Assembly: GCF_003334355.1 (NCBI RefSeq)
Contig: NZ_QOWP01000002.1
Strand: one strand, 5' to 3'
Origin: Escherichia coli
GTDB taxonomy: Bacteria; Pseudomonadota; Gammaproteobacteria; Enterobacterales; Enterobacteriaceae
Length of the DNA: 64,000 nt
Shown here in pieces: positions 30,540 to 30,806 of this stretch (position 1 is the stretch's first letter; every line of letters begins with the position of its first letter). Under the pieces are notes generated by a model that did no database searches, had not been told where the DNA came from, and worked only from the letters and a program-made list of their open reading frames with translations. The position numbers were made by a program, and so were the translations under genes.

Positions 30540-30806
30540 AGAAAGCATAATACTTCTGTTTCAGCACGCAAGGAAAGCCGTAAAGTTATGAGCAAAAGTT
30601 TGATGTGCTGCACAATTTTTTGCCATTTTTCCTAATTGCTGATGGGAAAATCCGTTATCAGCAATTTCATTTCAGCAGCGTCAGCAGCCAATCAGCAACA
30701 GTGAAATGGCATTTTGATTATTCGTGGCGCTTTTGATTTCGCTGTCTGTTTATTTTCTGACAAGCAGCGTAAACTCCGCGTCTTCCTCTTCCAGTGATCG
30801 ACCAGC

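Follow-up and report, generated by a model that had tools for sequence, protein, structure and literature searches.

Arrays of short boxes that recur in helical phase are known for several oligomeric regulators, and examples are the TGGGN repeats of MraZ, the direct repeats of the OmpR/PhoB/ArcA type, and the sites of the MelR/AraC type that flank CRP. Another known arrangement is the long-spaced palindromic operator, as in the case of NikR (GTATGA-N16-TCATAC) and PaaX (TGATTC-N27-GAATCA). The fruBKA operon is a textbook case of an operon controlled by Cra and CRP, and metabolic engineers make use of its control region, which has also served as a reporter of Cra. The Cra operator has the sequence 5'-GCTGAAnC/GnTTCAGC-3' (PMC7897506), and in the in vivo Cra motif, ctgaAtCGaTtcag, the information resides in the central A-CG-T (AtCGaT) and not in the outer ctga (PMC5888115). 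One CRP site has been reported to serve both fruBKA and setB (PMC3105977).

In a stretch of 64,000 nucleotides of Escherichia coli DNA, which is called the window here and to which all coordinates refer, the spacer between fruB and setB contains a perfect 10-bp inverted repeat. The initial annotation regarded this repeat as a binding site of a dimeric regulator rather than as a terminator. As a box is conserved in each arm and as these boxes belong to an array that is phased throughout the family, a protein-binding role is still the best reading, but the proposed unit for a single dimer, 10-N13-10, is not what is conserved. It is somewhat probable that the repeat represents two boxes of a conserved, phased array, and that this array is a platform for an oligomeric regulator of fruBKA. 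The palindrome itself is ordinary. Of modest interest is the array, an orphan cis-element in an operon that has been studied in great detail.

The inverted repeat and its neighbours

The fruB-setB spacer comprises 367 bp between divergent genes on the E. coli chromosome, and the K-12 annotation of the matching locus confirms the identities of fruB and setB (Table 1). The arms AATTGCTGAT (30634-43) and ATCAGCAATT (30657-66) are 100% complementary over 10 nt with 13 nt between them (gggaaaatccgtt), and the repeat corresponds to K-12 coordinates 2,263,690-2,263,722. It ends 141 bp before the ATG of setB (30807) and starts 195 bp beyond the ATG of fruB (30439, minus strand), which agrees with the rounded distances of about 140 and 200 bp that had been given before. 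Of 5426 complete E. coli genomes, 5414 have the whole spacer, each in one copy, and the matching stretch bears no annotated feature. A dispersed repeat of the REP/BIME or ERIC kind was not found, as there is a single place per genome in 5344-5414 E. coli genomes and this was the same locus in every record inspected. Tandem Repeats Finder gave nothing above threshold on the fruB-setB spacer.

Table 1. Coordinates of genes, sites and boxes in the fruB-setB region of the window
Feature	Position	Strand	Remarks
fruB CDS, first gene of fruBKA	29309..30439	minus	window ORFs and K-12 annotation
Cra operator O1, GCTGAATCGTTTCAAT	30459..30474	-	consensus scan and alignment
Cra operator O2, GCTGAAACGTTTCAAG	30526..30541	+	0 mismatches to RSTGAAWCSNTHHW; invariant in alignment
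CRP-like site, TTTGATGTGCTGCACA	30599..30614	.	anchor of the box lattice; conserved in alignment
Repeat left arm, AATTGCTGAT	30634..30643	+	holds box L, TTGCTGA (30636-42; pentamer GCTGA 30638-42)
Repeat spacer, 13 bp, GGGAAAATCCGTT	30644..30656	.	sequence and length vary between genera
Repeat right arm, ATCAGCAATT	30657..30666	-	holds box M (TCAGC 30658-62), a semi-conserved extra box copy
Box R1, TTCAGCA (reverse complement TGCTGAA)	30671..30677	-	family-wide inverted partner of L
Box R2, GTCAGCA	30680..30686	-	9-11 bp after R1
Box R3, ATCAGCA	30691..30697	-	extra copy in Escherichia and Franconibacter; position peak +82/83
setB CDS, sugar exporter, divergent from fruB	30807..31988	plus	window ORFs and K-12 annotation

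The CRP-like site, 20 bp to the left of the repeat, is the only place in the spacer that matches TGTGA-N6-TCACA when up to 2 mismatches are allowed, and the same scan found no CRP site in the repeat itself. The repeat had been described as distinct from the Cra sites nearer to fruB, and this is borne out: the operators are separate, at 30459-74 and 30526-41, and when the spacer was scanned for the 16-mer Cra operator, with as many as 4 mismatches allowed, O1 and O2 were the only hits and nothing was found over the repeat. The two operators form a direct repeat, 67 bp apart (30461-30472 and 30528-30539). In tagatose-evolved E. coli, a 67-bp deletion of a 'Cra binding site' has been selected (PMC10101011); this length matches the O1-O2 distance, and a probable origin of the deletion is that O1 recombined with O2. 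An extra Cra-type half-site, GCTGAAAC (30558-30565, minus strand), is situated between a conserved TTGCGT, which is possibly the -35 element of fruB, and the likely -10 element, and it recalls the placement of O1 between -35 and -10 at fruB of V. cholerae (PMC7897506). We infer that O1 and O2 of E. coli lie downstream of the fruB promoter.

Perfect inverted repeats are enriched overall in the window. Of those with a length of at least 10 bp, 14 have a spacer of at most 30, and dinucleotide shuffles give 1.7 +/- 1.3; if the spacer is limited to 13, the numbers are 10 and 0.86. Chance alone would produce about one such repeat in 64 kb, and the repeat alone is not statistically compelling. Its own statistics therefore cannot decide, and its significance rests on comparative data. 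The pentamer GCTGA is common in the window (314 copies); the fruB-setB spacer has 9 copies of GCTGA/TCAGC, and 5 of these form, within 59 bp, the densest cluster of the pentamer in the 64 kb. The 13 other repeats in the set of 14 have their centres near 3520, 3577, 3636, 14025, 22934, 26636, 36546, 37547, 46434, 49775, 53085, 53255 and 55822, and three of them are clustered at 3520-3636.

Conservation, phasing and gene linkage of the boxes

Species-representative genomes were scanned with FruB, which gave 80 Enterobacteriaceae loci, and 72 of these 80 have setB and fruB in divergent orientation with about 330-380 bp between them; a homologous-protein search with FruB gave close Salmonella relatives only. 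The alignment comprised 73 fruB-setB spacers, and boxes were counted over 81 loci, which are phylogenetically related, so that the counts overstate independence.

What is conserved is a box of 5-8 bp, TTGCTGA[A/C], and not the 10-bp palindrome. In the alignment of 73 sequences, the core TTGCTGA of box L is near-invariant, with 80-99% conservation of its columns, and the same range applies to R1 (TTTCAGCA, 30670-77) and R2 (30680-86), but not to the sequence between the boxes. Conservation is 0.2-0.6 in the columns of the right arm and 0-0.7 in those of the repeat spacer. The logos show a single type of box, with TTGCTGA[A/C]GC at L and, when the other two are read on the opposite strand, TTGCTGAA at R1 and GCTGA[C/A]G at R2. 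The GCTGA of box L is found at its lattice position in 76 of the 81 loci, a pair of TCAGC boxes (R1/R2) at a distance of 8-12 bp in 77, and L together with the R pair in 72, with 31-34 bp from L to R1 in most loci; L is missing in Leclercia and Silvania, and R2 in Kluyvera. The boxes occupy fixed, phased positions across more than 30 genera, and the sequence between them is scrambled. In E. coli strain E89 (L084:451-620, NZ_CP121157.1), an 18-bp tandem duplication, in which TCAGCAGCG occurs twice and which aligns to window positions 30672-30689, has resulted in four instead of two copies of the 9-bp R1/R2 unit, and this unit can hence expand by slippage.

The positions of the boxes were determined relative to the GCACA that forms the right half of the CRP-like site (window position 30610) and whose distance from O2 is, with few exceptions, 84 bp (83-85). 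On the plus strand, the boxes are concentrated at +10, +19/20, +28-31 and +36-40, and on the minus strand at +48-52, +61-64, +70-74 and +82-83, where the peak at +61 to +64 is that of R1. A scan for periodicity peaks at 10.5-10.75 bp, with a resultant length R of 0.70 over all occurrences and of 0.63-0.64 when each recurrent position is counted once; box M is 2-3 bp off the ideal lattice. In Klebsiella/Raoultella, about 20 bp are deleted between the CRP site and L, and deletions of about 10-11 bp are found in Lelliottia, Yokenella and Enterobacter; all these lineage-specific deletions are close to whole helical turns. Indels that keep the 10.5-bp phase to the CRP site point to duplex DNA, not RNA, as the form that matters, and to judge from the sequences, the phasing would be the signature of proteins on one face of the duplex, in register with CRP and RNA polymerase.

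In six loci, setB is replaced by unrelated genes (L052, L056, L075 and L079, which are Phytobacter-type, L058 of UBA3516 and L068 of Siccibacter), and all six have retained the Cra operators, the CRP-like site and the boxes L, R1 and R2, often with a second L box 10 bp further on. In these loci the inter-box sequences have diverged and the conserved blocks proximal to setB (30702-27 and 30746-84) are gone. As the array persists after the replacement of setB, it belongs to the control region of fruB, although it is also upstream of setB in E. coli. The blocks that adjoin setB, TGAAATGGCATTTTGATTATTCGTGG (30702-30727) and CTGTTTATTTTCTGACAAG...GCGTAAACTCCGCG (30746-30784), are strongly conserved but present only where setB is present, and they are probably the promoter or leader of setB. 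Positions 30747-63 are 3 mismatches away from a PhoP box and likewise from the CRP consensus.

A more distant case is a metagenome locus (L086:2136-2500, FruB 72% identical), in which the R1/R2 pair and the synteny setB-yeiW-yeiP are kept and L is missing. Two GTTTCAGCA boxes, 10 bp apart, take the place of the E. coli CRP-like site in that locus, which suggests that boxes and CRP site may substitute for one another. In Citrobacter amalonaticus AUH_CA_2023_1 (L008), SetB aligns from residue 77 onward only, with 5' sequence that looks intact, and this may be due to a frameshift or an assembly error.

Candidate binders and alternative readings

The searchable literature contains no experiment that touches these bases and no paper with the exact sequences or a relevant GCTGA/TCAGC motif. 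Consensus scans for IHF, Lrp and PhoP gave no credible match over the repeat. The 'cre tag' of CreB is TTCAC-N6-TTCAC, and the R1/R2 arrangement TTCAG-N5-TTCAG is similar to it, but one base and the spacing differ, and a literature search on CreB gave noise only. When the boxes are read by eye as sigma-54, sigma-32 or -35/-10 elements, the spacing is wrong or the GG/GC elements are missing. Small ORFs across the array are not compatible with a box spacing that varies by 1-2 nt between species.

Some binding data exist for the spacer as a whole. A strong FlhDC gSELEX peak has been found there, with a predicted box inside the setB coding sequence, and the FlhD4C2 box has been given as AAYGSSNNAAATAGCG-N10-12-CGCTATTTNNSSCRTT (PMC9962212). 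There is no half-box with up to 5 mismatches within the repeat, and the nearest one (30621-36, 4 mismatches) touches only the first three bases of it. The boxes are also kept in Klebsiella/Raoultella, which are non-flagellate. A weak gSELEX peak of the RpoH holoenzyme is present in the spacer, too (PMC5493296). For CyuR (DecR), a low-scoring site GCACAATTTTTTGCCATTTTTCC has been predicted (PMC11408624); the consensus for CyuR is GAAwAAATTGTxGxxATTTsyCC, and the predicted site corresponds to 30610-30632. It shares bases with the CRP-like site, in the right half of the latter, and ends 2 bp before the repeat, in a stretch for which no conservation is seen beyond Escherichia. With SgrR, the regulator of the setB paralogue setA, there is one point of contact, as the 9-mer CAGCAATTT is common to the repeat region and the SgrR-dependent promoter of sgrS (GACAGCAATTTTATTTTCCC). 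This 9-mer falls into the flank that is specific to E. coli and not conserved, sgrS has an A in place of the conserved T of TCAGC, and there is nothing in common with the SgrR-dependent alaC promoter. In the literature, no paper ties SgrR to the regulation of setB, and the sole paper that names both is a general review of glucose transport. SgrR is therefore a weak lead, and it is extremely improbable as the binder.

Since the outer six bases of a Cra half-operator are those of the box and the spacer is unusually rich in the pentamer, Cra is the only named candidate. The fruB-setB spacer is the strongest peak of all (intensity 82) in a published peak list, most promoters of which we take to be classical promoters of the Cra regulon, and the signal may reflect a Cra-like specificity. 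As a special case of the array reading, the boxes could be auxiliary half-operators of Cra (FruR), in which case additional Cra bound upstream would loop to O1/O2 and tighten the repression of fruBKA. Such a role would fit to the nine GCTGA/TCAGC copies in the spacer, to the reverse complement of R1, GCTGAAATGAAATT, which is 2 mismatches away from a degenerate 14-mer Cra consensus, and to the fact that the array travels with fruB, the strongest Cra target, but a LacI-family dimer is not known to span half-sites 13-35 bp apart. In the Cra operator the half-sites abut around a central CG, whereas the arms of the repeat are 13 bp apart. The correspondence is with the outer six bases of the Cra half-site, GCTGAA (PMC7897506), but the boxes have no central AtCGaT, which is where the information of the Cra motif sits (PMC5888115). 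Their positions 7-8 break the W-C preference of Cra, with a conserved G where Cra prefers A/T, and the boxes have no 16-mer match at up to 4 mismatches, all of which makes an auxiliary Cra function unlikely.

A further possibility is that AATTGCTGAT-N13-ATCAGCAATT serves as the operator of a single regulator, a symmetric dimer or tetramer, and of that regulator only, as had been proposed in essence by the initial annotation; repressors of the NikR or PaaX type bind long-spaced palindromes of such a form. The perfect 10-bp dyad would agree with this, as would the 49-bp segment that holds the repeat and is identical in 5259 of 5426 complete E. coli genomes, but that identity is no greater than for the whole fruB-setB spacer within E. 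coli. Conservation of the palindrome in relatives had been set as the test, and the outcome is divided, as the boxes within the arms are conserved but the perfect 10-bp repeat is found in E. coli only. In other Escherichia it is reduced to 9 bp (Escherichia sp. MOD1), 8 bp (E. albertii) or 6 bp (E. whittamii, L004), and no L+M pair was found in the Escherichia loci L003, where L is mutated to GTTGA, and L005, which is without M. Beyond Escherichia, the L+M pair comprises 5-9 bp with the arms 1-18 nt apart. A pair with 13-15 nt between the pentamers does recur in Escherichia, Salmonella, several Citrobacter, Kosakonia and others, and this is the spacing in most loci that have box M, with only 3 nt in some Enterobacter. 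In E. coli the complementarity of the arms continues outward (AATT), in Citrobacter inward (GCTGACGC/GCGTCAGC). Box M itself, counted as a TCAGC between +45 and +50 relative to the GCACA anchor, occurs in no more than 32 of the 81 loci and is missing in 49, whereas L is kept with R1/R2, and throughout the family L pairs with these boxes outside the palindrome, at 30671-86. A self-contained operator is, for these reasons, quite improbable.

The boxes might also be relics of duplications of Cra-operator-like sequences, or products of slippage, and have no function. That about one such repeat per 64 kb is to be expected, that GCTGA is abundant, and that the R unit slips in strain E89 would all be in line with such a neutral origin; retention of phased boxes across more than 30 genera amid scrambled sequence, and even after the loss of setB, is difficult to reconcile with it, and we give it little probability.

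There remains the reading as RNA or DNA hairpin, in which the repeat would fold within a long 5' leader of setB or within an antisense RNA and act as a structural or processing element. The 45-nt segment has a stable predicted fold (-13.6 kcal/mol for the plus and -13.4 for the minus strand, with z-scores of -3.5 and -3.9), and in most species L forms a perfect inverted repeat of 7-11 bp with some downstream box, but this reading is very improbable, as no sigma-70-like promoter consensus was found in 30380-30860 and no known or predicted promoter upstream, Rfam 15 gave no match at an E-value of at most 1 (29800-31400, both strands), RNAalifold gave no consensus structure, no covariation was seen, the pairing partner of L switches among M, R1 and R2 by species, pairing of the flanks beyond the pentamer is only 32-35% without a plus-strand G-U excess, and the indels keep the 10.5-bp phase. 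A terminator had already been judged doubtful, and correctly so, since the A/T-rich stem is followed by TCATTTCAGC and 30380-30860 contains no T-run or terminator-like site.

Proposed function and comparison with known systems

The reading of the repeat as part of a phased array for an oligomeric regulator can be put as follows. The palindrome consists of the box copies L and M (TTGCTGA[A/C]G) and would not be a self-contained operator; its perfect 10-bp symmetry in E. coli would be a lineage-specific by-product of two boxes with matching flanks. Together with the R boxes, they form an array of 3-5 boxes that adjoins the shared CRP site on its far side, at a distance of about 200-260 bp from the start codon of fruB in the upstream direction, with left-hand boxes that point to the right and right-hand boxes that point to the left. 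With all boxes on a lattice of about 10.5 bp, they present one helix face in register with the CRP site. We infer that a protein binds the array and thereby influences fruB: in the most likely mechanism, an oligomeric DNA-binding protein on this face would modulate the CRP-dependent transcription of fruBKA, and as the region is divergent, setB is possibly affected as well.

If it is functional, the array would be a further regulatory input about 200-260 bp upstream of fruB that is shared with setB; it could explain residual regulation, and constructs that truncate the spacer or insert into it would have to allow for it. In a published strain, a cassette has been inserted with the help of a homology arm whose end falls within the repeat, in its left arm (PMC5012592). 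If the array has no function, the repeat is one of those expected by chance. It is conceivable, and we propose it tentatively, that the array provides a third input to an operon that is thought to be controlled by Cra and CRP only, be it through a transcription factor that is still uncharacterised or through Cra itself, if Cra can bind half-sites as an oligomer in a mode so far unrecognised. A helically phased GCTGA array upstream of fruB has perhaps not been described before.

With the operators of NikR and PaaX, the L+M pair of E. coli has in common that two short inverted half-sites are more than one helical turn apart, but in those operators the spacing and both half-sites are conserved, whereas the L+M pair differs from genus to genus in its spacing and in its second half-site. 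With the Cra operators O1/O2 of fruBKA, the boxes share the intergenic region, the outer hexamer GCTGAA/TTCAGC and the target operon. O1 and O2, however, are uninterrupted pseudo-palindromes of 16 bp around a central CG, situated between fruB and the CRP site, whereas the boxes are isolated units of 5-8 bp that lie beyond the CRP site at distances of 9-35 bp from each other and have no central motif. From the phased systems of MraZ, OmpR/PhoB/ArcA and MelR/AraC type, the array differs in that GCTGA matches none of the motifs compared, that the orientation of the boxes switches between the left and the right set, and that no cognate regulator gene is adjacent. What the array has in common with these systems are repeats of about one helical turn, a position upstream of a CRP-dependent promoter and in register with it, and indels of whole turns.
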